From an uncultured Candidatus Saccharibacteria bacterium (GTDB taxonomy: Bacteria > Patescibacteriota > Minisyncoccia > Phycocordibacterales > UBA2100): a stretch of 64,000 nt of DNA. Where the stretch lies: assembly GCA_964586255.1 (NCBI GenBank), contig CAZPGE010000003.1, positions 2,537 to 66,536 of the forward strand. The letters are read 5' to 3'. Positions 2 through 15,196 of this stretch are shown here, in pieces. Under the pieces are notes generated by a model that was not told where the DNA came from, ran no database searches, and saw only the letters and a program-made list of their open reading frames with translations. The translations under genes were made by a program, and so were the position numbers. The first letter of the stretch is position 1. Every line of letters begins with the position of its first letter.

Positions 2-1501
2 TCGGTCTCTGGCAATGCGTACTTTGCAGGATCTGGAATCTGGAATTCGAGCGGGAGTGTAGGTGTCGGTACGACATCGCCGTACGCAAAGCTTGCGGTG
101 CAGGCGACGGCGGGGCAGACAAATCCTCTTTTTGATATTGCGAGCTCGAGCGTAGGCACGTCGTTCTTCACGATTACGTCATCCGGGAGTGTTGGTGTGG
201 GTACATCGAGTCCTTCTGCAAGATTGGAAGTTGTTCATACCTCCAGCGGTGCGACTGCGGAACAGCTTTATCTCACTAACTTTGCATCGGCTACGTCGAC
301 CGCTTCGAGGATGACCTTCCGCGCCGCAGACGTGTCGGGCAGTGCGACATCGACAGCTGCGATTACATCGATATTGCAGCAAAATTATACGACCGGCAAA
401 GGTGACCTTGCATTCTCGACGCTTCAGAGTGGCACACTCACAGAAGTTTTCCGCGCGACAAGTCTTGGTAATGTTGGCGTTGGTACCACCACCCCGCTTC
501 GTCGTTTTGCGGTGGAGCAAGCAGCGTCCGCCGCGCAATTCTCCGTGGCATACGACACGACGCGTGTCACAGAAATACAAACCGATTCTTCAGGCGATGC
601 AATCATTAATCCGTCGGGCGATGATATCCGCGTCAACGATGACAATCTCTGGGTCTGTAGTGGCGGTTCGTGTCCCTCGGGCACTCCGAGTGGCACCGGT
701 AACTTGCTTGTTGAAACGGCATTGGGTGTGGGCACATCGACGCCTGTGTGGCCCCTCACTGCCTCTCATACGACGCTCCCGCAACTCTCCCTCACTGACG
801 GCTCAGCGACAAGTAACGCATGGACATTCCGCAGCGTCACGAATACCCTTTACATTGCGACATCCACTGCGTCGGCGACATCGACGGTCGCTGCAGTCAC
901 TATTACGCCGAATGGGCGTTTCGGAGTAGGCACCTCCACACCGACCACCCTGCTCTCTGTGGGCGGTCTCTTGAGCGTGGGAGCGAGCTCGACCGGCCAA
1001 CTGGCCACGATGGGAACGGCCACCTCCACGTTTAACGGTGACATCAAGATTACGGGCAAGCTCGACGTGGGCACCATCGACCCGGTATACACCATAGCCG
1101 GCATAAAATACGCAACATACGGTCATTCGACAGTGGGTATCAAGGAAGAAACGGTGCAAACTATTCATCTCGAAAAAGCAGACGACGGGTCGTATGCATA
1201 CACAATCGATTTCGACCATCTCCAGAAAGGAAGTGATCTCTGGCTGTTCTACCAGATTACCGATTTTGGAAAGAATTGGAGTGCGCTTGTAGTCTCACTT
1301 ACGCCTTCATTTGAGGGCACGGTGTACTACAAAAAGAATGTCGCTGAAAATACACTCACCATCAAGAGCAATAAGAAGGGCGAGGTCTCGATGCGACTCG
1401 TGGGCAATCGCTTCGACTTCTCCAAGTGGCCGAATCTTCGCACCGACCAAGATGGAGACACGTCAGGGTCGCACGTGATACCGGTGAAATCCAGACAATA
1501 G
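2..1501 (+). CDS. Giant repetitive 'tail-fibre-like' surface protein, 5'-truncated by the window edge (paralogue of the next gene)
   Basis: The reading frame is open from base 2 with no stop, so the ORF-track start at 98 is not the real start. It has 'GNVGVGTTTP'-type repeats. One block (PLRRFAVEQAASAAQFSVAYDTTRVTEIQTDSSGD...DDNLWVCSGGSCPSGTP) and the ~130-aa C-terminal domain (KITGKLDVGTIDPVYTIAGIKYATYGHSTVGIKEE...NRFDFSKWPNLRTDQDGD) are near-identical to those of 1503..4874. Confidence 0.7.
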   Translation, partial: SVSGNAYFAGSGIWNSSGSVGVGTTSPYAKLAVQATAGQTNPLFDIASSSVGTSFFTITSSGSVGVGTSSPSARLEVVHTSSGATAEQLYLTNFASATSTASRMTFRAADVSGSATSTAAITSILQQNYTTGKGDLAFSTLQSGTLTEVFRATSLGNVGVGTTTPLRRFAVEQAASAAQFSVAYDTTRVTEIQTDSSGDAIINPSGDDIRVNDDNLWVCSGGSCPSGTPSGTGNLLVETALGVGTSTPVWPLTASHTTLPQLSLTDGSATSNAWTFRSVTNTLYIATSTASATSTVAAVTITPNGRFGVGTSTPTTLLSVGGLLSVGASSTGQLATMGTATSTFNGDIKITGKLDVGTIDPVYTIAGIKYATYGHSTVGIKEETVQTIHLEKADDGSYAYTIDFDHLQKGSDLWLFYQITDFGKNWSALVVSLTPSFEGTVYYKKNVAENTLTIKSNKKGEVSMRLVGNRFDFSKWPNLRTDQDGDTSGSHVIPVKSRQ

Positions 1502-1502
1502 T

Positions 1503-4500
1503 ATGGCAGATCGAATACAGCTCGACGGAAAGACATTCATCCCCCTTATTGAGGCTGCCGGTATGACGGCCATATCGGAGAAACAGGTCATGGCGCTTGC
1601 ACAGTCCGGTCAGGTTTTCCTCAGGGCGATAGGGAAGAAAGTGTATGTCGATATTGATGGGCTGCGAAATGCTGTACGTACGCAACAATCGGCTCCCGTC
1701 GTGGAGGCGACTGTCGCGCCACTCCCTGTCGCTCCGCTGGTGAAGGCACGGGCGCTGTCTGCTCCGCCCGCCGCCCCAATCTCTGCGTCTGTGGATGTGC
1801 CAATGACTCCGCAGTCGCCGACAGTCCTGGTATGGCCGGCGCCGAAAGTATTGGAAACACTGCGCGTCGCGACGCCTCCGCTGCCTACGCCACATATTCC
1901 GGTGCAATCATCAATGACGGAGCAAGCGCCAATGCGTCCCGCATCGCTCGTTGCTGCCCCGCTCGCGTCTACGCAAGTGCGACCGGAAAACATATCACCG
2001 CACCATCTAAGCTCTGCCGAGTTGTCCGCCCTCGCACCTATAGAGATTTCTGCGCCAGCAGTACGGAGTACGGAATCGCTGCCATTGCAAGCCCCGTCGC
2101 GATCGAACTCTCTCCCGCGCATGGTACTTCCTCCCAAACAGCTTGCTGGAGGGACCGGCCGTTCTTTCGCGACGTCGGCCTCAACGCTTGTCGCTCTCGT
2201 ATTCGTAATAGGCGGAGGTGTTGCAGTGTATGAAAACAAGCCCGCACTCGCTCGTTTTGTTGGTCATGTCGGTGAGCAGGTCGCAGCCGCCGTGAGTTTC
2301 GGTAATACGGCGACATACCAGGCACAGCCCGGTACGCTAGGCAACTCACCGCTGGAAAATAGTCCGAGCGAACTGCAGGCGAGCACGCAGGCCGGTACGA
2401 TACCGGTCGCAGTGGCCTCGTCATCGCAACCCATTTACTACGTATATAACTACCCGGTGATTGAGCGCATCCGTACAGAGGTCCAGTATATTGACGCTGA
2501 GAGTCCACAGGATTTTGCTCAGCAGCTCGACGCGCTCTACCAGCGCATCCAAGCGCAGATACAGAGTCTGAATATCAGCACCAATACGAATTTCGCGCAG
2601 CAATACCAAGTCATCGCTCAGACCAACAATATCGATAAGCTCGGAAGCGTAACCATCGACAATAACTCAACATTCTCGGGCGGCACCGTGACAGGCTCGA
2701 CGCTCACCGATATCGCGTCACTTGCAGTATCGGGAGGTACGACGCTCGGAGGGCTCACGGTGGGCGACATCACCGCTTCGGGCGGTGGCACATTCTCGGG
2801 AGCAGGCATCTTTTCGTACCTAACGGCTTCGTCGACGAGCGCGACTTCCACATTCAATGGGGCATTGCTCGCTACGAGGGCGCCGACAATTCCGCACACG
2901 TTCTCATCATGGACTACGGGGGCCGCAAACTCTGGTGCGTTTGATGCTGCCTTGGTTATCAATCCGTCCAGTGCCGTAGCGGATAGCAACCTCTTCTCAG
3001 CGATGGTGAACGGGTCGGTGAAATTCCTTGTTGATGTGGAAGGTGATGTCTTCGTAAACAACCTGACCTCTGTCGGCTCAGTGACGCTCTCGACCACGTC
3101 GGCGTCGACATTCACCGTCGAGGGCAATACGACGCTTGGCGATTCAATCACTGATACGACGACGATTAACGGAGCGCTCGTCGTCTCAGGCACGACGACA
3201 GTCTCGACCGTCTCGGGTAAGTTTGGTGTGGGCACTACGACTCCGTGGGCCAAACTCGCAGTTCAAGCGACTGCGGGTCAATCTCACCCCATCTTCGAAA
3301 TCGCGAGCTCTTCGAGTGGCACCTCGTATCTCACTGTTGCATCGTCGGGGAATGTAGGGATTGGTACCACATCGCCATCCGCGACACTCGCGGTGACCGG
3401 GACATTTACCACCACGGGTACCAACACGTTCGGTGGTGCGCTCAACATCGCGGGAGCAATCACCTCCACCGCATCGACCGCCAATACATTCCCGTATGCA
3501 TCATCTACCGCGCTCACTGTCTCAGGCACGGGCTACTTCGCGGCTGCCTCCACGACCAATCTCACGGTATCGGCGCTCACAAGCGGTCGCGTACCATTTA
3601 TCACGACGGCGGGGGCATTCACCGATTCGAGTGCATTTGCATTCGACAGCTCTCTCACGAGGCTCACTGTCACGAATGCATCAACAACAGCACTTACGGT
3701 AAATGGTTCAGCATATTTCAACGTAGCCTCGACATCGCAGCTCTCCGTCTTTAGTCGTGCATATTTTGGCGGCTCTGCTACAAGTACATTCGATTCTGCC
3801 GGAAACATATTTGCGGTCGGAACACTCGGTGTGGGTACGTCATCACCACTCCGGAAGTTCGCTGTTGAACAGGCTGCCTCAGCGGCACAGTTCTCGGTCG
3901 CATACGATACGACGCGTGTCACTGAAATACAGACCGACTCGTCGGGAGATGTCGTCATCAATCCTTCCGGTGACGATGCTCGTCTCAACGATGACAATCT
4001 CTGGGTCTGCGCAGGAGGTTCGTGTCCAAGCGGCACGCCAAGCGATACCGGCAATCTCATCGTGGAGACCAAGATCGGTATCGGCTCTTCGACGCCGATG
4101 GACCTGCTGTCGATCAGTGGCACGCCGAATCCGCGTGTTCGATTCAACGATTCGGGAGGTTCCGCGTTCCAACTTCTCTTCGATAACTCCGACGCGTATT
4201 TGGATAATGCAAAAGTGGGTAAAAACTTTGTCTTTAGAACCTCGAACTCAAGTGCCTTAGACACGACGGCTATAACTATTCTATCGAGTGGAAAGACTGG
4301 TATCGGTACCACGACACCGACCGACATGCTCTCTGTGCACGGACTTCTGCGCGTGGGGGCGAATAGTGTCGCACCCGTAACACTAGGTACTGCCACTTCC
4401 ACATTCAACGGCGACATCAAGATATTGGGCAAGCTCGACGTGGGCACCATCGACCCGGCGTACACCATAGGAGGTACCAAATATGCGACATATGGGCACT

Positions 4501-4874
4501 CAACAGTCGGGATCAAGGAAGAGACGGTGTTGAAGATCAGTATGCAGCAGTGGGATCCGGAGAGTGGACTGTATCGATACATTATCGACTTTGACGAGCT
4601 CGAGAGAGGAATCGACCTTTGGCTCTTCTATCAGATCACGGACTTTGGAAAAGACTGGAAGAATCTTATTGTATCGCTTACGCCCGCATTCAACGGATTC
4701 GCATTCTATGAAGAAGATATCGAAAAGAACGCGATCATAATCTACTCATCTCAAGAGGGGCAAGTTTCCGCACGACTTATTGCAAATCGCTTCGACTTCT
4801 CGAAATGGACAAACCTACGACCAGATCAAGATGGTGACTCCAAGGGCACGCATGTCATCGAGGAGAAACGGTAG
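1503..4874 (+). CDS. Giant repetitive 'tail-fibre-like' cell-surface protein with an N-terminal cytoplasmic domain and one TM helix (type II anchor)
   Basis: It is 1123 aa. ATG sits 1 nt after the upstream stop. A Pro-rich linker is followed by a TM helix (LVALVFVIGGGVAVY), then long Gly/Thr/Ser-rich repeats (SSGNVGIGTTSPSATLAV). The C-terminal domain is shared with 2..1501. Confidence 0.8.
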   Translation: MADRIQLDGKTFIPLIEAAGMTAISEKQVMALAQSGQVFLRAIGKKVYVDIDGLRNAVRTQQSAPVVEATVAPLPVAPLVKARALSAPPAAPISASVDVPMTPQSPTVLVWPAPKVLETLRVATPPLPTPHIPVQSSMTEQAPMRPASLVAAPLASTQVRPENISPHHLSSAELSALAPIEISAPAVRSTESLPLQAPSRSNSLPRMVLPPKQLAGGTGRSFATSASTLVALVFVIGGGVAVYENKPALARFVGHVGEQVAAAVSFGNTATYQAQPGTLGNSPLENSPSELQASTQAGTIPVAVASSSQPIYYVYNYPVIERIRTEVQYIDAESPQDFAQQLDALYQRIQAQIQSLNISTNTNFAQQYQVIAQTNNIDKLGSVTIDNNSTFSGGTVTGSTLTDIASLAVSGGTTLGGLTVGDITASGGGTFSGAGIFSYLTASSTSATSTFNGALLATRAPTIPHTFSSWTTGAANSGAFDAALVINPSSAVADSNLFSAMVNGSVKFLVDVEGDVFVNNLTSVGSVTLSTTSASTFTVEGNTTLGDSITDTTTINGALVVSGTTTVSTVSGKFGVGTTTPWAKLAVQATAGQSHPIFEIASSSSGTSYLTVASSGNVGIGTTSPSATLAVTGTFTTTGTNTFGGALNIAGAITSTASTANTFPYASSTALTVSGTGYFAAASTTNLTVSALTSGRVPFITTAGAFTDSSAFAFDSSLTRLTVTNASTTALTVNGSAYFNVASTSQLSVFSRAYFGGSATSTFDSAGNIFAVGTLGVGTSSPLRKFAVEQAASAAQFSVAYDTTRVTEIQTDSSGDVVINPSGDDARLNDDNLWVCAGGSCPSGTPSDTGNLIVETKIGIGSSTPMDLLSISGTPNPRVRFNDSGGSAFQLLFDNSDAYLDNAKVGKNFVFRTSNSSALDTTAITILSSGKTGIGTTTPTDMLSVHGLLRVGANSVAPVTLGTATSTFNGDIKILGKLDVGTIDPAYTIGGTKYATYGHSTVGIKEETVLKISMQQWDPESGLYRYIIDFDELERGIDLWLFYQITDFGKDWKNLIVSLTPAFNGFAFYEEDIEKNAIIIYSSQEGQVSARLIANRFDFSKWTNLRPDQDGDSKGTHVIEEKR

Positions 4875-4916
4875 GAGAGCGATGGATTACACTACGACAC
4901 CTGGTGCTATATAATA

Positions 4917-5510
4917 ATGCACACACATATGCAGAAACGAACTCGGAAGATGATGGTTGCGGCAGTGATGGCGGCTTTAATTGGAGTTCCTTTGTTCGTG
5001 GGCGCGGTTGTTATCACGGAGACCAGTAGCGTGACCGGCCTCGCGAGCGTGCTCGGTGCCCTCTCAAAGGGCTCGGGCACATTCGTCATCGACCACCCAC
5101 TCGACCCCAAAAACAAGCTTCTCTATCACTCATTCGTCGAGTCGCCCGATGTAAAAAATCTCTACGATGGGATTGTACAGCTTGATGCGTATGGGGAAGC
5201 CGTCATAGAATTACCTGCGTATTTCCTCGCGCTCAACAAAGACTTCCGATACCTCGGTACTCCGGTAGGTGGGCCCATGCCAGAGCTTTACCTATCTAAA
5301 GAAGTTCATAAGCGTTATTTCAACGTGCTAGGTGCAATCTCGATACGCATATCGGGCGGTACTCCCAGCGGACGTGTATCTTGGCAGGTTACGGGTATTC
5401 GCCACGACAGATTCATCGAAGCGTACCCCATAGTCCCAGAAGTTGAAAAGGGGCCCGATGAGCTGGCAGATAAGGGCGAATACGTGTGTGAAGAATGCTA
5501 TGTGCAATAA
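4917..5510 (+). CDS. Small N-terminally anchored protein carrying the conserved 'IDHPLDP...SWQVTGIRHD' domain (paralogue 1 of 3)
   Basis: N-terminal hydrophobic segment. The domain reads SKGSGTFVIDHPLDPKNKLLYHSFVESPDVKNLYDGIVQLD...GGRVSWQVTGIRHD...EVEKGP and is shared with the next two genes. Confidence 0.65.
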   Translation: MHTHMQKRTRKMMVAAVMAALIGVPLFVGAVVITETSSVTGLASVLGALSKGSGTFVIDHPLDPKNKLLYHSFVESPDVKNLYDGIVQLDAYGEAVIELPAYFLALNKDFRYLGTPVGGPMPELYLSKEVHKRYFNVLGAISIRISGGTPSGRVSWQVTGIRHDRFIEAYPIVPEVEKGPDELADKGEYVCEECYVQ

Positions 5511-5513
5511 CAT

Positions 5514-6059
5514 ATGAGGATCTCTTCAGTCAGGCTGCTCATAATTCTTGCTGTCATACTCGTCCCGGGCGTAGTCGTGGCGGTAAAACTTACCGGCAAT
5601 GTACAATTTAGAGGCAGCCTTGCGATTTCGGGTGCCCTCTCAAAGGGCTCGGGCACATTCGTCATCGACCACCCACTCGACCCCAAAAACAAGCTTCTCT
5701 ATCACTCATTCGTCGAGTCGCCCGATGTAAAAAATCTCTACGATGGGATTGTACAGCTTGATGCCAACGGAGAGGCAGAAATAGAGTTACCGGAGTATTT
5801 TGACGCGCTCAATAAGGCGCCGCGGTATCAGTACTTTCCCCTCGACGAGGCGATGCCTGGCCTCTATGTTAAAGATGAGGAGAAAGAAAATGGATTCGTG
5901 ATTGCAGGAGGAGCGCCCGGGGGACGGGTGTCATGGCAGATTACCGGTATACGTCATGACCCGTATATACTGAGAAATCCAGTCCGCAATGAAGTGTGGA
6001 AAGGTCCAAACGAAGAAGTAGGCAGAGGCGAGTGTCTCTATGAACCCCTATGCGAATAA
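5514..6059 (+). CDS. Small N-terminally anchored protein with the same conserved domain (paralogue 2 of 3)
   Basis: Shares a 48-aa identical stretch (LSKGSGTFVIDHPLDPKNKLLYHSFVESPDVKNLYDGIVQLDA) with 4917..5510, and the C-terminal SWQITGIRHDPYILRNP...KGP motif. Confidence 0.65.
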   Translation: MRISSVRLLIILAVILVPGVVVAVKLTGNVQFRGSLAISGALSKGSGTFVIDHPLDPKNKLLYHSFVESPDVKNLYDGIVQLDANGEAEIELPEYFDALNKAPRYQYFPLDEAMPGLYVKDEEKENGFVIAGGAPGGRVSWQITGIRHDPYILRNPVRNEVWKGPNEEVGRGECLYEPLCE

Positions 6060-6811
6060 TTACACGGGCTACATGTTTCCTCTTGTTGCTGACGCCAATG
6101 AGCGCGCATGCATATTTCCAGGGTTATTATGAAGCCGCCTACTACTCGCAAGCAACCTACTATTCTCAGGCTACTTACTACTCGCAAGCAACCTACTATT
6201 CTCAGGCTACTTACTACTCGCAAGCAACCTACTATTCTCAGGCTACTTACTACTCGCAAGCCAGCTATCAGACGACGTTCACAAGAAATGCGTCTATCGT
6301 AGGAGGCCTCAGTGTGGCGGGGCACATCTCAAAGGGCTCAGGTACATTTGTCATCGATCACCCGCTCGACCCTTTCAATAAACTCCTCTTCCATTCGTTC
6401 CTCGAGTCGCCCGACGCAAAGAATCTCTACGACGGCATAGCGAAGCTCGACAAGGACGGCAGCGCGCGAGTCACGTTGCCGAAATACTTCGAAGCGCTTA
6501 ATACGGATTTTCGCTATCAGTTGAAGCCCGTTGGTGCGCCGATGCCACTACTTCATGTCCTGAGCGAGGTGTCGGACAATAGTTTCGCAATTGGCGGAGG
6601 CGTCGCTGGTGGAAAAGTCTCCTGGCAAGTCACGGGTACGCGCAAAGACCAGTACATTCTCGACAATCCCATAATTCCCGAAGTCGAGAAGGGTCCGGAG
6701 CAATTGGTTGAGAAAGGCCAGTATCTTTTTGCGGCGGGGTACGACAACGGCGGCATCCGATCAATTTTCTCCGGAATAGTAGACCTTTTGAACTCCCTGA
6801 TCGCCCGCTGA
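6050..6811 (+). CDS. Secreted protein with the same conserved domain plus an inserted (YYSQAT)n tandem repeat (paralogue 3 of 3)
   Basis: Signal-peptide-like N-terminus (LLLLTPMSAHA). Contains ISKGSGTFVIDHPLDPFNKLLFHSFLESPDAKNLYDG...KVSWQVTGTRKDQYILDNPIIPEVEKGP. Overlaps the previous gene by 10 nt. Confidence 0.65.
   Translation: MRIITRATCFLLLLTPMSAHAYFQGYYEAAYYSQATYYSQATYYSQATYYSQATYYSQATYYSQATYYSQASYQTTFTRNASIVGGLSVAGHISKGSGTFVIDHPLDPFNKLLFHSFLESPDAKNLYDGIAKLDKDGSARVTLPKYFEALNTDFRYQLKPVGAPMPLLHVLSEVSDNSFAIGGGVAGGKVSWQVTGTRKDQYILDNPIIPEVEKGPEQLVEKGQYLFAAGYDNGGIRSIFSGIVDLLNSLIAR
6131..6266 (+). repeat. In-frame tandem repeat, 36-nt unit x ~3.5 (encodes the YYSQAT hexapeptide about 7 times)
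   Basis: Unit 'tactcgcaagcaacctactattctcaggctacttac' repeats perfectly. It lies inside CDS 6050..6811. Confidence 0.85.
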
Positions 6812-6836: not shown

Positions 6837-8036
6837 ATGGGAAAGTTTGCCGTGAAATATACGATAATCCCCTTCTTCATTGCGCTTGTGTTCGGAGTCG
6901 GCTATTTCATCTTCGGTGCTAAGCCGTACGCTGAAGCATCCTCCATCGCCCGCGGCGTGGAGGACTTCAAGGAACTATCTCAGCGCTTCGTCGCTCTTTC
7001 AGAAAAGAAGAGTGCAGAGTATGCGTTTGAGATACTCCGACGCGCGGAGTTACCCCCGAATACGGATTTGCATCTGTTGGGGCACGTCGTGGGAGATGAA
7101 TTGTACAAACAGCAGGGGATAGACGGTATCGTCTTATGTACGCAGGATTTCCGCAACGCATGTTCGCATTCCATAGTCATAGGAGCACTCAATGAATTTG
7201 GCGGAGAACCCGCCCTTGCACGCATCCGCGACGCGTGCCGAAGAGCGCCAGGAGGTTCCGGTGCATATACCATGTGTTACCACGGGTTGGGCCATGGCAT
7301 TCTCGCCTTTTATGGGTACGATCTGGAGCCTACAATTGCGCTTTGCAAACAAGCCGGCACTTTGGAATATCGTGAGCGCGAATATATAGAGTGTGTGGGG
7401 GGAGCCGTAATGGAGCTCATGGGCGGTGGTGGTCATGACAGAAAGTTGTGGCTCGCGAGTAGGTCACGATACTTGAGTGGGGATACGCCTCTTGCGCCAT
7501 GCACGAGCGACGTCATTCCAAGTGAAATAAAACCGCTGTGCCTTGTCTACCTCACGCCACGACTCTGGGAATTGGCCGGCATCGACTTAGGACGTCCGGA
7601 CCCGTCACTTTTCTCGAAGGCATTTGCGATGTGCGACACGCTCTCTCGCTCACGGCAAGAATTACGTGCCGCATGTTTCGGAGGCTTCGGAAAAGAATTC
7701 ATTCCACTCGCAGGTGCGCGAGACATTCGAGGCGTGGACCGGTTTTCTGATGATGCGTATGCTCAAGCGATTGAGTGGTGTGGGTATGCACCTGCAGAAG
7801 ATGGTCGCACGGCATGTATTTCAGAGGCTTTGGCATCGATCTTCTGGGGCGGAGAGAATGACCCAGAGGCGAGTTTCCGGTTTTGCGCTCTTGTTTCTGA
7901 GTCTGGAATGCAAAGCGCATGCTACGGAAGCCTCGCGCGTAATATTCAGGACTACACGGAAGGTTCCGTGCGAAACGCGCTGTGCGCACGTATACCAGAA
8001 AAGGAGCGTATAGAGTGCACAATCTCAGGTATATGA
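6837..8036 (+). CDS. N-terminally anchored Cys/His-rich repeat protein (family member 1 of 5)
   Basis: The ORF-track start at 6813 is GTG; the ATG at 6837 precedes a TM helix (IIPFFIALVFGVGYFIFG). Recurrent C...C...GYxHGxGHG motifs (MCYHGLGHGILAFYGYD). About 20 Cys, mostly in pairs. Confidence 0.7.
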   Translation: MGKFAVKYTIIPFFIALVFGVGYFIFGAKPYAEASSIARGVEDFKELSQRFVALSEKKSAEYAFEILRRAELPPNTDLHLLGHVVGDELYKQQGIDGIVLCTQDFRNACSHSIVIGALNEFGGEPALARIRDACRRAPGGSGAYTMCYHGLGHGILAFYGYDLEPTIALCKQAGTLEYREREYIECVGGAVMELMGGGGHDRKLWLASRSRYLSGDTPLAPCTSDVIPSEIKPLCLVYLTPRLWELAGIDLGRPDPSLFSKAFAMCDTLSRSRQELRAACFGGFGKEFIPLAGARDIRGVDRFSDDAYAQAIEWCGYAPAEDGRTACISEALASIFWGGENDPEASFRFCALVSESGMQSACYGSLARNIQDYTEGSVRNALCARIPEKERIECTISGI

Positions 8037-9088
8037 CACGACGTACCCTTATAGCGATTGCACTCTGCGTTGTATTTGGGGCTGGTGGCATCGCAGTACG
8101 CCAGTATGCGACCGAGACCCAGAGCTCGTTGGCGAACAGGCAGCCGACTGAGAGCGAGAGAATATGGACGGAAAAAATACGTGCGCTTGGTGGCAAAGCG
8201 GCATACGCTTCGCTTGCAAAAGAGATAGAGGGTATGGCGCCGGAGGTTCAGCACACGAGCGCGCATGCATTTGGCGCAGCCCTCTTTGCTGTCGAAGATA
8301 ATGCTGGACTATCTGTGTGCGACGCGCGCTTCTCGTATGGGTGCTTCCACGAGTTCATGGGTAATTCGATCGCGTCGCACGGGCTCTCTGTCGTCAACGA
8401 ACTCAACGAGGGGTGTATCCGGGTACTAGTCAAAAGCCCGCTCTCTTGCCAGCACGGCATAGGACATGGAATATTAGCCTCTCTCGGATACGACGAGGAG
8501 TCCCTCATTACGTCACTCGGGGAATGCGCCAAACTTCCATACAGTGACCGTATAGGGGGATGCTATGGCGGTGTGTTCATGGAATACAATATGCAAACGA
8601 TGCTCGGTAAACAAGGGCACTTACGGTCGGCAGATTCCGAGGAGGGTTTGTACAAGCCGTGTGTCGGCTTGGAATCGAAGTACCATGCCTCGTGTGTATT
8701 TTGGCAGCCGCAATGGTGGCACATTGCAGTGCTGCATGCTGAAAGCAGCGAAGAATCGTTTGCGCAGCTTGGTACCTACTGCAGAGGAATGACACATACG
8801 AAAGAGTTACGTCGCGAGTGCTTCCAGGGTATTGGCAATATTACGAATCCGGCCACCGATTTCGATGTAGTGCGCTCGCGAGAACTATGCGATGCCACTT
8901 CTTCAGACCACCTTGAACGACTCTACTGTAGGGCGTATGCCGCCAACTCCCTCTTAAATGGGGGCGGAGGAAAAATCGGTGATGGGGATGCGTTGTGCGA
9001 CGGCTTACCCGAAAGTGAGCGAGAGTTCTGTCTTGCGTATGCGCGCAATGAGGCAAATTCAGCGAATGTGTTGGAATCTCCTCTATGA
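8033..9088 (+). CDS. N-terminally anchored Cys/His-rich repeat protein (family member 2)
   Basis: Start ATG overlaps the upstream stop (ATGA). TM helix (LIAIALCVVFGAGGIAV). Motifs include SCQHGIGHGILASLGYDEE and CDARFSYGCFHEF. Confidence 0.7.
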   Translation: MTRRTLIAIALCVVFGAGGIAVRQYATETQSSLANRQPTESERIWTEKIRALGGKAAYASLAKEIEGMAPEVQHTSAHAFGAALFAVEDNAGLSVCDARFSYGCFHEFMGNSIASHGLSVVNELNEGCIRVLVKSPLSCQHGIGHGILASLGYDEESLITSLGECAKLPYSDRIGGCYGGVFMEYNMQTMLGKQGHLRSADSEEGLYKPCVGLESKYHASCVFWQPQWWHIAVLHAESSEESFAQLGTYCRGMTHTKELRRECFQGIGNITNPATDFDVVRSRELCDATSSDHLERLYCRAYAANSLLNGGGGKIGDGDALCDGLPESEREFCLAYARNEANSANVLESPL

Positions 9089-10248
9089 AGCCAGTCTTCA
9101 CGGTGAGCGGCTTTCTCATAATCGCCGCATGTGCTTTTGCGCTTATATTTTTTGCTGATGTTCGCTCTGCGCATAGTGAAGCCCAGCGCATCGTGGAGAT
9201 TTGCTCAGGAGAATCAGCACATGCCGAGTGTTACGAACGGGAGGTTCCGAGATTGCTTCCCGACTATTCACTCACGCAGGCCTTCGACGTCATACGTCAG
9301 ATTCGGTTAATCGACCCTGCGTACCAATTTTGTCACGTGCTTGCGCATAAACTCGGAGAGAGAGTCGTCGCTGAAGACCCCGACAAATGGATAGATGCCA
9401 TCCCGCTCAATCCGACGGATGGCCTGTGTTCAAATGGATATATTCACGGGGTGTTGGGTGGCCGATTTCGAGCAGAGGTTCTTGAACCGGCGGCTCTCAG
9501 AAAACTCATACCAGACTTCACGAGAGCATGCGCGTCGAGGAAAGAGTGGCGCTCCAGCGAACTGGACCGCGCCATATGCAGCCACGGCATGGGGCATCTC
9601 TATATGTTTATCACCGATGCGGACATTCCGCTTTCCCTTTCGCTTTGTGAAGACACGATGCCTGAGCAGCTGAGGCGCGTATGCCGCGAGGGTGTATACA
9701 TGCAAATTTATCAGCCGCTCGAACCGGATGACTATCTACTCATTGAGCGCATGCCCATAAAGCCGACGAAAGAAACACTCCGTTCCTTCTGTGCACGATA
9801 CACGAAAGATGAGTATGAGGGCGCATGTCTGCGAGAGGGCTGGCCATTTTTCCGAGAAGAGCTAAAGACTGGCGAAGGCATAACGAAATTTTGCTCAGGC
9901 CAGCCAAATGACCGAGAAGAGATAGCGTGCTTCGAATCCACGCTCGCACTCTCGGGCAGATTCAATCTAGGGAATCAGGCCAAGGCGCTCTCGCTGTGCA
10001 ACGAGGTTGCGGATAAATGGAAGGCGATGTGTTATTCGAGTGCGGCACGCGCGATACTTGAAGAGGACAGGGCAGAAGGGAAAAAGGCTGTCGCATTTTG
10101 TAAGAGCGCGGCAAACGATCAGCAAGACGAGTGTCTCGGGCAGCTTGCAGACACTGCCAGCTTCGTTTTCGGCAACTCCTCCGAACAGAAAAGGTTTTGT
10201 TCTCTCCTCCCAGTCCAGCTTAAGGAGCGTTGCCTGGGACAGCCATAG
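9085..10248 (+). CDS. N-terminally anchored Cys/His-rich repeat protein (family member 3)
   Basis: ATGA overlap with the upstream gene. TM helix (FLIIAACAFALIFFA). Motifs include QFCHVLAHKLGE, CSNGYIHGVLGG and ICSHGMGHLYMF. Confidence 0.7.
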   Translation: MKPVFTVSGFLIIAACAFALIFFADVRSAHSEAQRIVEICSGESAHAECYEREVPRLLPDYSLTQAFDVIRQIRLIDPAYQFCHVLAHKLGERVVAEDPDKWIDAIPLNPTDGLCSNGYIHGVLGGRFRAEVLEPAALRKLIPDFTRACASRKEWRSSELDRAICSHGMGHLYMFITDADIPLSLSLCEDTMPEQLRRVCREGVYMQIYQPLEPDDYLLIERMPIKPTKETLRSFCARYTKDEYEGACLREGWPFFREELKTGEGITKFCSGQPNDREEIACFESTLALSGRFNLGNQAKALSLCNEVADKWKAMCYSSAARAILEEDRAEGKKAVAFCKSAANDQQDECLGQLADTASFVFGNSSEQKRFCSLLPVQLKERCLGQP

Positions 10249-10260
10249 ACGACGTCGATC

Positions 10261-11943
10261 CTAGAATTTCGCTCCTTCGTGAACTAGGAACTCACGCAGG
10301 TCGTGGGCGATGCGATCGCGGTGTTCGTCAAAGCGTATGTCCGAGTACGTGACAAGGGCGGGGAGAGTACCGTTACTTGTAGAGCGCGCCTTAGGTGTGA
10401 TGTACAGCATTTCTCTCGAAGTATCTGAGGCGAGAAGAAGTGTTGGGAATGCAGCGTGTGTGAGAAATAGCGTTTGCGCACTGAGGTCATGAGGTGCTCC
10501 CTCCGCATACGTATCAAGATTGTTTTGTGTAATACGTACGATATTGGCAACAATTAAATCGAGTCCCGCAGACCCACTGCTCCATAGAAGCACAATTTCC
10601 TCAAGCTCACGGAGTTCTCCTGGAGAATTCGCTTGCGTCAGCACTTCGATAAGTGCTTCGCGTGTGTACACATATGCGTCTGACTCGTACCATACGTCAC
10701 CGGTAGAAAGGAGCGCTGAGCGATACGTGCGTGCAATTTCAGGGTGACGCTCCGCGAACTTTGCGCTAGCGCGCACCGCCTTTGCTCTCGTAAGATCCGT
10801 GCCGACATCGGGGCACAGATAGAACATCGTGGGGTTAATACGACTGAAACGCATGTCGTACTTTTTAGCGAGATATTGCAGCATTGGCGCCTTCGTATTT
10901 TCTGTGGGAGAAAAGATCACATCACCCACATACCACAGCGGAGCGATACCTAGGGGCTCCTCATTTCCTACAATGACGACATGGGGGTGGGGTAGTTCGC
11001 GAAGGCACACACTTTGCGTGAGGACAATGGGAGTCGAATTAGTAAATATGGGGGACGCCCTTTTTGTGAAGGTCTCGGCGTACAGCGTTCTCACCGAATC
11101 TATTAGAGTCCGGGACGCAGTGGATACACGCGGCGTCTTTGCGGCCGAAAGTGGAAATGCACGGCCAAGTATGAGCGAATCGGGATAACAATTCTCGATG
11201 CGGCCTTTCAGGCATGCATCGAGTTCCTGCGACTGACTTCCGAGTCTCTCAAACTCGCTCTCTATGCTGCGCGAAGTATCCAGCATGCTTTGGACTGAAA
11301 TGCTGCCACCGAATCCCTGGAATTGAGCCTTCTTTCCTGCCGTTATGAGCTCGTATGTCTTACGGAAATACGTACTGTCTTGGCGGCCAGCGGCGAGCGC
11401 GCGTCTTAGAGACGCATGATACAAGTCTCCATCTGTATCCGTACCGGATGCAATAAATGTACGCCGCGCTTTCTCAAGCTCAGCAAGCGACAATAAAAAG
11501 TGAATCGGATAGAGGCTGCGTATGGCAGATGTTTCCTGTGCGGTCATTTGTACACCCGCCAACTCATCCATGACTTCAGCGAGTTGGTGTGTAGAATCTT
11601 CAAGAAGTTGCGGGTCGCTTCCGGCAGCACTTAAAAGCGGTGCGCGACTCGCAAGCGTACGCGCGTAAGCAAGACGAAGAGCATTTCGGGCCGCAGTCGT
11701 AGATGTTCTCATGCCGTCCTCAGCTTCGACAAGACCGCCATGAATTCTGAACGATTTCCCTCGATACACGACGACCTCCTCTGTGCTCATCGTTTGAAGC
11801 ACAGAAGAGAAAAATGTGTCTGCGGCAGCCTGTTCATGTCGGTATCGGACGGCCGAAGAGATGGCACTCGCGGCTGCGAGGCCGAGAATAGCGTAGGCGA
11901 TATACGTGCGAATCCGGGTACTCATGGCACTGTAAGCATACAT
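10261..11943 (-). CDS. Large N-terminally anchored hypothetical protein (paralogue A)
   Basis: 560 aa. N-terminal TM helix. Shares length, architecture and motifs (ALRLAYA...; HFLLSLAELEKARRTF versus DFLEELANLEVARRQF) with 11977..13650. Confidence 0.6.
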   Translation of the reverse strand: MYAYSAMSTRIRTYIAYAILGLAAASAISSAVRYRHEQAAADTFFSSVLQTMSTEEVVVYRGKSFRIHGGLVEAEDGMRTSTTAARNALRLAYARTLASRAPLLSAAGSDPQLLEDSTHQLAEVMDELAGVQMTAQETSAIRSLYPIHFLLSLAELEKARRTFIASGTDTDGDLYHASLRRALAAGRQDSTYFRKTYELITAGKKAQFQGFGGSISVQSMLDTSRSIESEFERLGSQSQELDACLKGRIENCYPDSLILGRAFPLSAAKTPRVSTASRTLIDSVRTLYAETFTKRASPIFTNSTPIVLTQSVCLRELPHPHVVIVGNEEPLGIAPLWYVGDVIFSPTENTKAPMLQYLAKKYDMRFSRINPTMFYLCPDVGTDLTRAKAVRASAKFAERHPEIARTYRSALLSTGDVWYESDAYVYTREALIEVLTQANSPGELRELEEIVLLWSSGSAGLDLIVANIVRITQNNLDTYAEGAPHDLSAQTLFLTHAAFPTLLLASDTSREMLYITPKARSTSNGTLPALVTYSDIRFDEHRDRIAHDLREFLVHEGAKF

Positions 11944-11976
11944 TTTTTCCCGTCTTCGGGCACTTTTCCCCTAAGG

Positions 11977-13650
11977 TCAGTTTGTATCGAGATCGAATGA
12001 GCGAAAGAACCGCATGTATGAAATAGCGTCGGTCGTGGACAGAGTCTCATTCGAGAGTTCGGAGAGCAGCGCATATGGTTGCACGTCGGCAGACAAGGTA
12101 TTTGCTGGGAAGATTTGGTCGGTACCGTGTAAGGTGATGTTGAGAGAATTCGGCACGAGAGATAAGAAACCGCTTCGCGCAAAAAATAAATATGTCGCAT
12201 CAAAATCAATCGCTGCTTCGGGGGGGAAATGCAAATGCTTGGTCTCGTATGTATTGATGTCGCGCACCACACCCAGGATTCCGTCGCTCTTTGTGCGCAT
12301 GCGGAGCCACAACGAGCGAACATCATGCGAAATGGACTCCGGGAAGTCTGGGCTTTCCGAAAGTGTCCGCGCGTAGGTGAGATATGTCTCGACGTCGGCT
12401 GTTGTGATTATGTAAGCGGAGGCAAACGTGTTCTCAAGGCGCTCGAGCTCGGTGGCAAGGTTTCCTGAAGCCCTCATACTCAAGGTCTGGCGCAATGCAA
12501 AGTCCTTCACGGCATACGCTGCCATTACAGTCCCGAGGTCTGCTTGGGCCCCCACACATTCATAGTACGAGAGCGAGCTCATGTACACATACGGAATATG
12601 ATGAGCCGCAAAATATCCTATATACGGCAGTCCCGCGTATGGAGCACTTTCTACAAAGAGAATGTCTCCCACAAAAAGAGGTGAGGGTAGGGTTCCGCTG
12701 CCATTGTCTCGCATAGAAAAGAGTGGAGCCGTGCTGGAGTTCAGTGGCGTACATGCACTGTCGGGGAGTAGAAGTAGTTGCGAAGAGGTAAATCGGTAGC
12801 CGGAGCGCTCAAATATGTCGAGTGCACGTCCGGCGAATGTACGTGCCTCCGGATGCACAGGAGCAGCGAAGGTCGTCTGAAATTCTGGTAGGAGAATTTC
12901 AGTAGACGTGCATGCGCGGACGTGGCCTCGGAAGCATGTGAAGCGATTGCGCATGGAATTCGCTACATTGCCAGCATCTTTCTCGAGCTGGTCGAGTGCG
13001 TCAATAAAGTCGTCTCTACTCACGATTGATTGCGGGGTCGCAAAGCTTGGCGCGTCCAGAGGGACGGCCTTCTTAAACGCACGCTCAAATGCCGCGCGGT
13101 CTCTTTGAAAGGCATGAACCGTAGATAAGAGCTGAATTCGATAGCGCCTTGCGCTCTCGTCGTCGCCCACATTGAGGAATTGTCTTCTGGCCACTTCGAG
13201 ATTTGCAAGCTCTTCGAGAAAGTCGATGGGATACAAAAAGTGTTGTACAGAAAAAGTCTGATTGGAGCGTGTTTGTCGCACGGCCAGTTGTGATGCGGTA
13301 GAGCGGAGATTGGTTACGGAAGCTCGAAAGAAATCGATATCGATGTCGGGCAGCGCGAGTAGTGGATTGTTGCGCGCAGCGGATTTTTCGTACGCGAGTC
13401 GGAGTGCGGTGCGCTCTACTGCTCCCGCGACAGGCCCCGCTTCGTTCGCAACGGCGCCGAGCGATACGCGATAGGATACTCCGCGTATAGATACGGTCTC
13501 TTCGATGTGAGCATCTCGAAGAGCATTTGAAAAAAATGCCACCTCCGTGCGTTTTGCAGAGATTACTGAAACGAGGAGAACAAATCCGAAAAGTGCAAAG
13601 AAAAAAAGAGGGGCACGCACGAAGCGTTTCGACGCGAGACAAGCACGCAT
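11977..13650 (-). CDS. Large N-terminally anchored hypothetical protein (paralogue B)
   Basis: 557 aa. N-terminal TM helix (LFFFALFGFVLLVSVI). Tandem paralogue of 10261..11943. Confidence 0.6.
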   Translation of the reverse strand: MRACLASKRFVRAPLFFFALFGFVLLVSVISAKRTEVAFFSNALRDAHIEETVSIRGVSYRVSLGAVANEAGPVAGAVERTALRLAYEKSAARNNPLLALPDIDIDFFRASVTNLRSTASQLAVRQTRSNQTFSVQHFLYPIDFLEELANLEVARRQFLNVGDDESARRYRIQLLSTVHAFQRDRAAFERAFKKAVPLDAPSFATPQSIVSRDDFIDALDQLEKDAGNVANSMRNRFTCFRGHVRACTSTEILLPEFQTTFAAPVHPEARTFAGRALDIFERSGYRFTSSQLLLLPDSACTPLNSSTAPLFSMRDNGSGTLPSPLFVGDILFVESAPYAGLPYIGYFAAHHIPYVYMSSLSYYECVGAQADLGTVMAAYAVKDFALRQTLSMRASGNLATELERLENTFASAYIITTADVETYLTYARTLSESPDFPESISHDVRSLWLRMRTKSDGILGVVRDINTYETKHLHFPPEAAIDFDATYLFFARSGFLSLVPNSLNITLHGTDQIFPANTLSADVQPYALLSELSNETLSTTDAISYMRFFRSFDLDTN

Positions 13651-13654
13651 TTCG

Positions 13655-13867
13655 TCAGTATATGCCCCCGCAGCTTATGAAGAAAATCTCGTCTTCGTAT
13701 GCGTCGGGAACGCATCGTGCCGCCGCTAAAGTGTTCCTGTCCGTATTACCCTCGGAGTGAGTAAACCAGCCATGCGTCGACGAGGTATCCCCATATACGA
13801 GTATCCCGATGATGCCAACGAAGCACCCGAAAAGGAATAATTTCAGTGTCCTCATGTGTACGACCAT
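13655..13867 (-). CDS. Small TM peptide ending ...EDEIFFISCGGIY (candidate precursor or substrate peptide)
   Basis: 70 aa with an N-terminal TM helix (LKLFLFGCFVGIIGILVY). Its C-terminus resembles that of 23586..23816 (...KMLFISCGGFLD). Lies immediately downstream of the PaaK-like gene 13931..15196. Confidence 0.45.
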   Translation of the reverse strand: MVVHMRTLKLFLFGCFVGIIGILVYGDTSSTHGWFTHSEGNTDRNTLAAARCVPDAYEDEIFFISCGGIY

Positions 13868-13930
13868 AGTTCTCTGTCAGTATATCGTCCGCGAGAAGAT
13901 TCGCTAGAAGAGAAGGTGCTCACGGAGTGC

Positions 13931-15196
13931 TCAATGCCGTACAATTCTTCGAATCTTTGTGCCCGGTACGAGTGTAAGGTGTTCACATGTAAGTGGCAGG
14001 TAACGCGCAGAGGCGACCCCCTCCGCGTACGACATGAAAGGCCCGACGCGTATGAGCGACGAAATATCGGCGGCAAACACATCAAGTTTTACATCGGCAC
14101 GCAATTCGATATGGAGGGCGAACTTTAACTGTGGGCCAGACGGAGTTTCAACCTCGGAATAGTGGAGCTCAAACACATCTGAAACCTGCGAGGGGAATAG
14201 TCTGAGCACGCGCGCTATTTCGTCTGCACGCAACAAGCCACCGGGGATTTTAATGAAATCCATATCAGTGCGGCCAAGTACCGTAAATGACCACATCCCA
14301 TGTTCGTGACAGGGCGCCTCCATGATGCGTATCGTGTCACCGATGCGGAAACGAATAAGTGGAAAGGATGCCGGCTCTCCGGGGTATGTCGTAACTAAGA
14401 GATCACCTTCCGCGCCCACGCTCGGCTCGATGATGTTGCCGCTCTCGGCGTCGAGCAGTTCCAAGTAGTGTGTCTCTTTCGGGTGGTAATGGGCGATTGG
14501 TTCAAGAAGTGTAAGTGGTCGACATGGCATGCCCATATGCGCATCCTCGATTTCGCTTGAATTGTACGATTGTACGATAGTGGCATTGGGGAATGTATCG
14601 TGCATGTACTGTATTTGTGCACGGCTGCACACCTCCCCGGTCACTTCAATAAATCGAATTTCCGTATTGTTACCGAGCGCCTTCATTTCTTCTCCGATAT
14701 CGCGCACGTGGTATACAAATGCCGAAAATGCGTCTGCACCCGCCGCTTGCGCGAGTCTCGCCGACGCGCGCGGCTCTCTCGGGTCGAGGCATAGTACGTG
14801 CGGGGAACCGCCGTGCTCCTTTTGAAACGTTTCGTGCCAATGGGGCATCAAGGGTACGGTGAATGCCAGGAATGGTCTCTTGAAGTCATGGAAACGGAGT
14901 CGGTAGTCCATGCCTCGCACGTGCGTGCGAGGGGAAAAGAGTGGAATTTTGCCGCTTGTGCCGGACGATGCGCGCACGTGGTCAAGATTGGAAAGTGGAA
15001 TGAAGGATCGTTCCGCGAGTGCTTTGCGGGCAAGTGCGTCCTTTGTGAGAATCGGAAGCGCGCGCCAGCCGTCCATATCTTGGAGGTCGAGCGCAGGGGC
15101 ATCATGCGATAGACCATACAACTCGCGATAGAACGTGTTGTTGCCTGACCGTGTCGCGCGAGCAGCCAGGGCGTACAGGTCTTTTTGGGAAAGCAT
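13931..15196 (-). CDS. Adenylate-forming enzyme of the PaaK / coenzyme-F390-synthetase-like (ANL) family
   Basis: P-loop SSGTSGKIPLF, A7-like LIRFRIGDT, hinge-region GRTDMDFIKIPGG. 421 aa. Confidence 0.7.
   Translation of the reverse strand: MLSQKDLYALAARATRSGNNTFYRELYGLSHDAPALDLQDMDGWRALPILTKDALARKALAERSFIPLSNLDHVRASSGTSGKIPLFSPRTHVRGMDYRLRFHDFKRPFLAFTVPLMPHWHETFQKEHGGSPHVLCLDPREPRASARLAQAAGADAFSAFVYHVRDIGEEMKALGNNTEIRFIEVTGEVCSRAQIQYMHDTFPNATIVQSYNSSEIEDAHMGMPCRPLTLLEPIAHYHPKETHYLELLDAESGNIIEPSVGAEGDLLVTTYPGEPASFPLIRFRIGDTIRIMEAPCHEHGMWSFTVLGRTDMDFIKIPGGLLRADEIARVLRLFPSQVSDVFELHYSEVETPSGPQLKFALHIELRADVKLDVFAADISSLIRVGPFMSYAEGVASARYLPLTCEHLTLVPGTKIRRIVRH

Follow-up and report, generated by a model that had tools for sequence, protein, structure and literature searches.

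What is the role of three small paralogous genes that lie directly downstream of two giant fibre genes in an uncultured Candidatus Saccharibacteria bacterium? The question is raised by a window of 64,000 nucleotides (nt), corresponding to positions 2,537-66,536 of contig CAZPGE010000003.1 (assembly GCA_964586255.1), whose coordinates are counted here from the start of the window. Three consecutive open reading frames (ORFs) of the + strand encode proteins referred to below as p1, p2, and p3 (Table 1), or together as the trio. Parcubacteria/Paceibacteria are abundant, uncultured, ultra-small bacteria that are thought to live attached to other cells, and the mechanism by which they establish contact is largely unknown. 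The answer towards which the evidence leans, if modestly, is that the trio represents a conserved, probably co-translated module of exported, stalk-less, trimeric surface knobs that could play a structural or adhesive role.

The three genes are packed closely, with a gap of 3 nt between ORF1 and ORF2, an overlap of 10 nt between ORF2 and ORF3, and a single nucleotide between ORF3 and the next gene. Pairwise alignment of their products gives 48-58% identity, and all three carry the motif SKGSGTFVIDHPLDP-x-NKLL-[YF]HSF[VL]ESPD-x-KNLYDG ... VSWQ[VI]TG ... KGP, as well as a predicted beta-sandwich domain of ~125 amino acids (aa) that is C-terminal in each. A preliminary description of the window, made from its letters, had reported tandem small paralogues with this motif at 4917-6811, each with an N-terminal anchor or signal; the three same-strand ORFs lie exactly there, the motif is present, and each protein displays an N-terminal hydrophobic segment, with Kyte-Doolittle 19-mer maxima of 2.57, 2.92, and 1.29 for p1, p2, and p3, respectively, and a helix predicted by AlphaFold2 (AF2) at residues 5-21 of p2. 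The p2 C-terminal end, GECLYEPLCE, carries two Cys residues, while p3 has a predicted signal peptide cleavage context of ...SAHA/YF and a hydrophobic or amphipathic C-terminal tail (aa ~230-253, nt 6737-6808). The family profile scores p1-p3 at E = 1e-82 to 1e-100 and p2 as query recovers 1596 close homologues, so that the observation stands far beyond chance. Homologues occur in many phyla, and the trio is thus not a set of lineage-specific orphans, an outcome that the preliminary description had considered as one that would speak against it.

The nature of the domain becomes apparent from its relatives. A profile search of 1.84 billion cluster representatives (50% identity clusters) yielded matches in 15,354 clusters at E <= 1e-3, 6818 of them at E <= 1e-30. 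Among the best 150 of the 15,354 representatives, on which the architecture statistics are based, 133 proteins are longer than 260 aa, 17 measure 260 aa or less and 111 exceed 400 aa, most having 400-1300 aa; the domain ends at a median of 23 residues from the C-terminus, the N-terminus is hydrophobic in 104 of the 131 that are complete, and the region ahead of the domain is fibre-like and rich in Gly, Ala, Thr, and Ser. The N-terminal parts of long relatives include Laminin_G_3, SPRY, and DUF7483 domains and Gly-rich regions, and one relative (P0231) carries 23 collagen-like G-X-Y triplets upstream of the domain. A taxonomic scan with one genome per species detected the domain in Patescibacteria, Acidobacteriota, Verrucomicrobiota, Chloroflexia, Zixibacteria, Ignavibacteriae, and Hymenobacter koreensis, and hence in both monoderm and diderm phyla. 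In the latter organism, a cultured member of the Bacteroidota, a 725-aa protein consists of a signal peptide, a long region rich in Gly, Ser, Ala, and Thr, the domain, and a short Pro/Ala-rich tail. Phages employ the domain in the same position: it forms the C-terminal end of a 1170-aa tail fibre in phage P-SSM2, of a minor tail protein encoded after other minor tail proteins in the Arthrobacter phages Sonali and Mufasa8, and of virion structural proteins in S-TIM5-like cyanophages. The best-150 statistics, the Hymenobacter koreensis protein and the phage fibres bear out the initial statement that this is a C-terminal module of long fibre-like proteins from Bacteroidota and other phyla.

The comparison between genomes that the preliminary description had proposed shows the domain mostly at the end of long fibre-like proteins in other phyla, and as small separate genes in most Patescibacteria loci. 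Outside the latter group, four short homologues (P0420, P0411, P0383, and P0365) have an N-terminus that is not hydrophobic, and two further candidates for free-standing forms, P0346 and P0325, were rejected, their reading frames being the ends of longer or frameshifted fibre genes and having no export signals. A separate observation concerns two Acidobacteriota loci (L068, 3958-11214; L080, 2-6513), in which domain-ended proteins of 700-890 aa are also encoded by three successive genes.

The domain family is very large and unmodelled in the libraries searched. The Pfam search that had been suggested was extended to NCBIfam and PHROG and gave no meaningful match for p1-p3, and no match was obtained in sequence searches of the PDB with either a single protein or the profile. 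The name given to the domain at the outset, that of a 'tail-fibre-domain' protein, could not be verified: family members are called 'hypothetical' or 'LamG domain-containing' in the databases, which offers no functional lead, and the Pfam family PF13884 (Peptidase_S74), from which the label 'tail fiber domain-containing protein' presumably derives, matches neither p1-p3 at E <= 1 nor any of 20 long relatives (28 proteins having been scanned overall). A literature search found nothing on the domain, on DUF7483, or on a locus of this kind.

The AF2 model of p2, built from an alignment of 34 sequences, has a mean predicted local distance difference test (pLDDT) score of 82.6, with values >90 in the core, and consists of an N-terminal helix, a flexible neck, an eight-stranded beta-sandwich (residues ~48-147), and a short C-terminal extension. 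When the model is compared with predicted viral structures in BFVD, 23 matches at E < 1e-3 are found, all to minor tail, tail fibre, and collagen-repeat proteins, and the top PDB themes returned by Foldseek, themselves weak, comprise the R2 pyocin fibre and tailspike C-terminal domains (Pam1, phi297, Sf6, and a Klebsiella phage depolymerase). Sequence identity across phyla amounts to ~55-60% over 140 aa, and F49, H53, P54, L62, H64, E68, P70, Y76, G86, and R147 are retained even in phage homologues; D52 is lost in those from cyanophages, where H53, H64, E68, and R147 persist. The conserved His, Asp, Ser, and Glu residues could possibly form a metal site or an interface. The domain is preceded by a conserved S-K pair (LSKGSG), and nothing ties this pair to cleavage.

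Strong conservation of polar residues across phyla (D52, H53, H64, S65, E68, S69, N74, N100, R104, Y105, W141, Q142, R147, and D149) could also speak for the trio as an envelope tether, with a polar surface of the domain binding a conserved envelope polymer, such as peptidoglycan or a wall glycan, and thereby holding both the small proteins and the fibre ends to the wall. The short linker between hydrophobic segment and domain in p1 and p2, which puts the domain beside the membrane, and the Tyr-rich arm of p3 would be in keeping with such a role. This explanation nevertheless appears quite unlikely, as the same domain is located at the ends of phage tail fibres and at the C-terminal end of fibres whose N-terminus serves for anchoring or export, is shared by monoderm and diderm phyla alike, and bears no similarity to the known wall-binding domains of Pfam in the proteins scanned.

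The presence of fibre genes immediately upstream evokes the question of how the trio relates to them. Fibre gene A is open at the start of the window, its full-length form comprising at least 1373 aa as seen in locus L004, and is followed by fibre gene B. DNA repeats link the two genes (476-744 with 3828-4096, and 1013-1156 with 4386-4529, at 71% and 83% identity), which identifies them as paralogues with similar C-terminal thirds. In fibre B, the only strongly hydrophobic helix is found at aa 224-242 (nt 2172-2228) and is followed by a region rich in Gly, Ser, Thr, and Ala and by the C-terminal domain; the position of this single helix suggests that the N-terminus lies in the cytoplasm and that the fibre is external and anchored in the membrane. 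The N-terminus itself (window 1503-2230) contains a segment of ~60 residues that resembles a small helical domain, followed by a Pro/Ala/Ser-rich stretch.

The last ~190 residues of fibres A and B form a domain that is conserved in the fibres upstream of related trios. BLASTP detects no similarity between p2 and fibre B. A profile-profile comparison (hhalign) of the fibre C-terminal domain with the small-protein family aligns 114 collinear columns at E = 1.1e-3 and a probability of 20%, taking in the preceding neck 'G-x-[IL]-x-[IL]-x-G-x-L'. Modelled by AF2, the fibre domain reaches pLDDT >90 for residues 80-165, and its viral matches coincide to a large extent with those of the p2 model, among them the Mufasa8 minor tail protein, A0A8S5NHN7, A0A1D3SNL1, A0A516LZD6, and A0A8S5PGA5. 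On the grounds of the profile-profile alignment and of these overlapping structural matches, the two domains have the same predicted fold and are probably distant homologues; as modelled, the locus encodes five proteins ending in this predicted fold. The initial suggestion of a domain 'detached' from the neighbouring fibres therefore finds no support in that form: the domain is free-standing and encoded directly downstream of the fibre genes, but the fibres keep a C-terminal domain of their own with this predicted fold. The trio proteins are relatives of fibre ends that have no stalk, rather than a piece removed from the fibres beside them.

Such an arrangement could potentially be explained if the trio were a trans-acting partner of the fibres, that is, a chaperone for assembly outside the cytoplasm, or an adaptor at the tip, that would dock on the fibre C-terminal domain or fold together with it. 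The trio follows the fibre genes immediately and shares their strand, a same-strand fibre with this type of C-terminal domain precedes the domain genes in 25 of 48 Patescibacteria loci, often within 100 nt, and the common fold and probable distant homology of the domains make mixed assemblies conceivable. This role is nonetheless unlikely: four loci (L028, L033, L038, and L040) keep the trio with its Cys-rich or reverse-strand neighbours and have no fibre in the 5 kb upstream, the export signals of the trio set it apart from cytoplasmic Tfa/gp38-type proteins, and neither Pfam nor PHROG matches p1-p3 to Caudo_TAP or gp38-like families. In addition, p1 or p2 of some genomes reaches 400-500 aa through a Gly-rich or (lectin-like) LamG region ahead of the domain, as would befit surface proteins in their own right, and three specialised, position-conserved paralogues exceed the needs of a chaperone.

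An indication that the three genes form a set comes from their conservation in the 48 loci mentioned above, which stem from Kaiserbacteria, Adlerbacteria, Nomurabacteria, Paceibacterota, and other Patescibacteria. Exactly three successive domain genes are present in 35 of these, the exceptions being mostly cuts at contig ends or single LamG-domain forms, and the genes of a trio usually overlap, by 10-35 nt. Among 28 clean trios, 74 of 84 best cross-genome matches link genes of the same position, which indicates that the triplication is old and that each position has its own orthologues. Each position also has its own signature. In p1, a hydrophobic segment is combined with a domain that carries an insertion and altered residues at ~106-128; p2 is the minimal form, with a frequent GECLxEPLC end; and p3 conserves the signal peptide (...A-x-A/Y), Tyr-rich repeats (YYQ, YYSQ, or YYYGQG), the domain, and a hydrophobic or amphipathic tail of ~25 residues.

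Superimposed on this ancient divergence is an exchange of sequence between the genes. The preliminary description had noted a perfectly identical stretch of 48 aa in two of the proteins; such a stretch does exist between p1 and p2, but it comprises 45 aa (GALSKG...VQLDA), and extends to 48 identities in 49 positions when one mismatch is admitted. At the DNA level the two genes share a perfectly identical run of 134 nt (Table 1), within which all third-codon positions match, while outside it they mostly differ; for this reason the run is a recent gene-conversion tract, and not the product of purifying selection alone. Of 35 other genomes, 12, 6, and 13 show perfectly identical runs of at least 40 nt for the three pairs of paralogues, and the identity of paralogues within a genome (59-64%) is about equal to that of orthologues between genomes (60-64%), both of which argue, from the alignments, for gene conversion inside the trio as a recurrent process. 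Variation of another type is seen in the p3 repeat array, which can be described with an 18-nt period (6.9 copies, 6138-6261) or a 36-nt period (3.4 perfect copies, 6140-6261): eight YYSQA[TS] units are present in the window, and four (72 nt fewer) in L004 (8672-9361), L005, and L006. The latter are short-read assemblies whose sequence is otherwise identical to the window, and the difference reflects either real copy-number variation or collapse of the repeat during assembly.

How these observations could be combined into a working structure is the subject of the favoured reading. Here, p1 and p2 each consist of an N-terminal signal-anchor or signal peptide, a neck of ~20 residues resembling the last fibre repeat, and the predicted beta-sandwich of ~125 residues; p3 begins with a cleavable signal peptide, continues with a low-complexity arm rich in Tyr and Gln and with the beta-sandwich, and closes with a hydrophobic tail. 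The module would trimerise to form the distal knob of fibres, a property that we infer because it ends phage fibres and collagen-like proteins, the latter containing obligately trimeric segments. Its stalk-less version would have been fixed in Patescibacteria (Parcubacteria/Paceibacteria) as three specialised paralogues, which would reside on the outer face of the membrane as products of a surface-fibre locus that runs from giant fibres tipped with the same fold, through the trio, to Cys-rich proteins. There they may serve as a short knob for contact between cell surfaces; since dozens of related genomes keep all three genes together, the trio is probably part of the surface attachment apparatus of the cell. 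A 1:1:1 complex is suggested by a gene number fixed at three, an unchanging order, orthology by position, and the overlap of the genes. The most far-reaching version of this idea, which can be put forward only tentatively and by analogy, is that p1, p2, and p3 form an obligate 1:1:1 heterotrimeric knob, in which two chains would give the membrane anchors and the third the Tyr-rich arm and the hydrophobic tail, and which would be a core part of an as yet undescribed apparatus for host contact in Parcubacteria, built jointly with the giant fibres and Cys-rich proteins of the locus.

Several points weigh against the favoured reading. Foldseek finds no significant match for the p2 model in the PDB (best E = 0.02), and trimerisation, with the heterotrimer above all, is argued from analogy and gene arrangement. 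The cross-phylum conservation described above is unusual for a receptor-binding tip, and could better fit a core needed for folding or oligomerisation, a metal site, or a ligand that is itself conserved. A search for position-specific residues that would mark asymmetric interfaces yielded only two strict columns among p1-p3, the three domain cores being otherwise almost identical, which speaks against a strict heterotrimer. A few loci carry one, two, or four domain genes, and p2 has an internal deletion in 3 of the 35 trios (L047, 5632-6027; L051, 6518-7006; L052, 1789-2283), which leaves proteins of 131-164 aa and suggests that p2 can decay or be remodelled. The deletions in these three loci remove part of the beta-sandwich.

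The domain also works in single-gene contexts elsewhere, namely in phage fibres and in single long genes of other phyla. Taken together with the near identity of the core at all three positions, and with those genomes that have a different copy number or a damaged p2, this leads to the alternative that the trio consists of three independent homo-oligomeric knob proteins with separate roles, the number three being a matter of old duplication history rather than of stoichiometry. This alternative is conceivable but doubtful, given that the gene order is constant, that three copies are typical, that each position has orthologues of its own, and that the overlap of the coding regions suggests coupled translation.

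The surroundings of the trio (Table 1) provide additional indications of its context. The window shows the full order of the locus, with fibres, three knob genes, and Cys-rich paralogues. A family of Cys/His-rich proteins of ~400 aa lies directly downstream of the trio in 32 of the 48 loci and is its most constant neighbour; the three paralogues in the window have an N-terminal hydrophobic segment and repeated C...HG.GH-like motifs, and are without Pfam or PHROG match. The opposite-strand family encoded by the genes within 10261-15196 is found near the trio in 14 of the 48 loci, and in at least one locus (L043) homologues of ~560 aa are encoded on the strand of the trio. A promoter-like site in the 42-nt gap between fibre B and ORF1 is the best sigma-70-like match in the first 16.5 kb; it is a consensus match only, in a region where the count of such sites is not above chance, and it hints that the trio may have its own promoter at 4886-4915, with ORF1 starting at 4950 or 4953.

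Table 1. Coordinates of the trio and of neighbouring features in the window
Feature	Position	Strand	Remarks
3' part of giant fibre gene A	2..1501	+	open at window start; PHROG tail-fibre matches 9e-15, 4e-10
Fibre A C-terminal domain	926-1498	+	
Giant fibre gene B, 1123 aa	1503..4874	+	PHROG tail-fibre match 5e-5; paralogue of fibre A
Fibre B C-terminal domain	4293..4871	+	profile-profile comparison, AF2, BFVD matches
Promoter-like site ATTACA-18-TATAAT, 10/12 consensus	4886..4915	+	in gap between fibre B and ORF1
Paralogue p1 (ORF1), 197 aa	4917..5510	+	hydrophobic aa 15-33; domain core nt 5064-5456, 8-aa insertion
Gene-conversion tract in p1, 134 nt	5055..5188	+	identical to 5631-5764
Paralogue p2 (ORF2), 181 aa, minimal form	5514..6059	+	hydrophobic aa 8-26; ~20-aa neck; domain core nt 5640-6008
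Gene-conversion partner tract in p2	5631..5764	+	
Paralogue p3 (ORF3), 253 aa	6050..6811	+	signal peptide, Tyr-rich repeat, domain core nt 6329-6697, C-tail
Tandem repeat coding YYSQAT units of p3	6138..6261	+	
Three Cys/His-rich paralogues, ~370-410 aa	6813-8036, 7982-9088, 9085-10248	+	
Two paralogous ~560-aa proteins	10261-11943, 11977-13650	-	no family match
421-aa protein	13931-15196	-	no family match

The PHROG tail-fibre matches of the upstream genes, together with the occurrence of the domain in phage tail fibres, could also be taken to mean that the trio is the remnant of a prophage or tailocin tail-fibre module. This origin is hardly credible and was rejected: none of the neighbouring genes scanned is otherwise phage-like (capsid, tail, baseplate, or integrase), the window contains housekeeping genes such as those for DNA polymerase III alpha and PheT, dozens of species-level genomes within a single bacterial class keep this order of genes, and the trio has signal or anchor segments, which virion proteins do not. 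With regard to the distribution of the locus, among a further group of contigs (L023 and L048; also L025, L029, and L049), those labelled Ectothiorhodospiraceae or Acidimicrobiales contain Patescibacteria-type knob genes, all three in L023 and two, cut by the contig end, in L048; since fibre or Cys-rich neighbours accompany these genes, the contigs look mis-binned. Those labelled Hyphomicrobiales have one gene each for a LamG region plus the domain, with a sequence of the Patescibacteria type.

What is new in these results is, firstly, a domain family of more than 15,000 clusters (50% identity), without a model in the libraries searched, that is common to bacterial surface fibres and phage tail fibres; secondly, a conserved module of three genes that encode a fibre-end domain in free-standing form; and thirdly, the conserved multi-gene surface-fibre locus that surrounds it. 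Structural biology and research into how episymbionts attach thus gain concrete candidates in the trio and its locus, and the trio offers a testable example in which three paralogues, between which gene conversion exchanges sequence, may assemble into a mixed trimer.

A number of known systems share features with the trio. Certain phage tail-fibre assembly or tip proteins are encoded downstream of fibre genes and dock on the fibre ends, and the small genes for Tfa/Caudo_TAP and T4 gp38 directly follow those for long fibres, as the trio does; the latter, however, matches none of these families, has signal or anchor segments, and is homologous to the fibre ends themselves and not to the chaperones. 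Human C1q provides an analogy of a different sort. Its three tandem paralogous genes, C1QA, C1QC, and C1QB, encode chains whose C-terminal globular domains form a heterotrimeric head; in both cases three adjacent paralogues end in a compact beta-sandwich that, in related proteins, comes after a trimeric rod, and collagen-like rods also occur in the domain family of the trio. There is no sequence relationship between the two, the small proteins are without a rod, and a heterotrimer would be proposed for them by analogy.

Peptidase_S74 (PF13884), an intramolecular chaperone, is likewise a highly conserved C-terminal module mounted on varied fibre and spike bodies in both phages and bacteria. The Peptidase_S74 domain is largely helical, whereas that of the trio is a predicted beta-sandwich that does not match PF13884, and copies that stand alone and are exported are at odds with a domain destined for cleavage and disposal. 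The C-terminal beta-sandwiches of phage fibres, tailspikes, and R-type pyocins (R2 pyocin, 6cl6; Pam1, 7eea; Sf6; AP22 gp53, 4mtm) resemble the trio domain in being all-beta, are the top structural themes for p2, and lie at the C-terminal end of trimeric fibres, a place where true sequence homologues of the trio domain are also found in phages. The solved domains give no significant sequence (hidden Markov model) or structure match (best Foldseek E = 0.02), and the trio domain differs from phage fibre ends in that a cellular genome encodes it with an export signal and little else, and from typical receptor-binding tips in being far more conserved. By position and fold class, the closest known counterparts of the trio are thus the C-terminal beta-sandwiches of phage fibres and tailspikes, while in behaviour it comes closest to Peptidase_S74.

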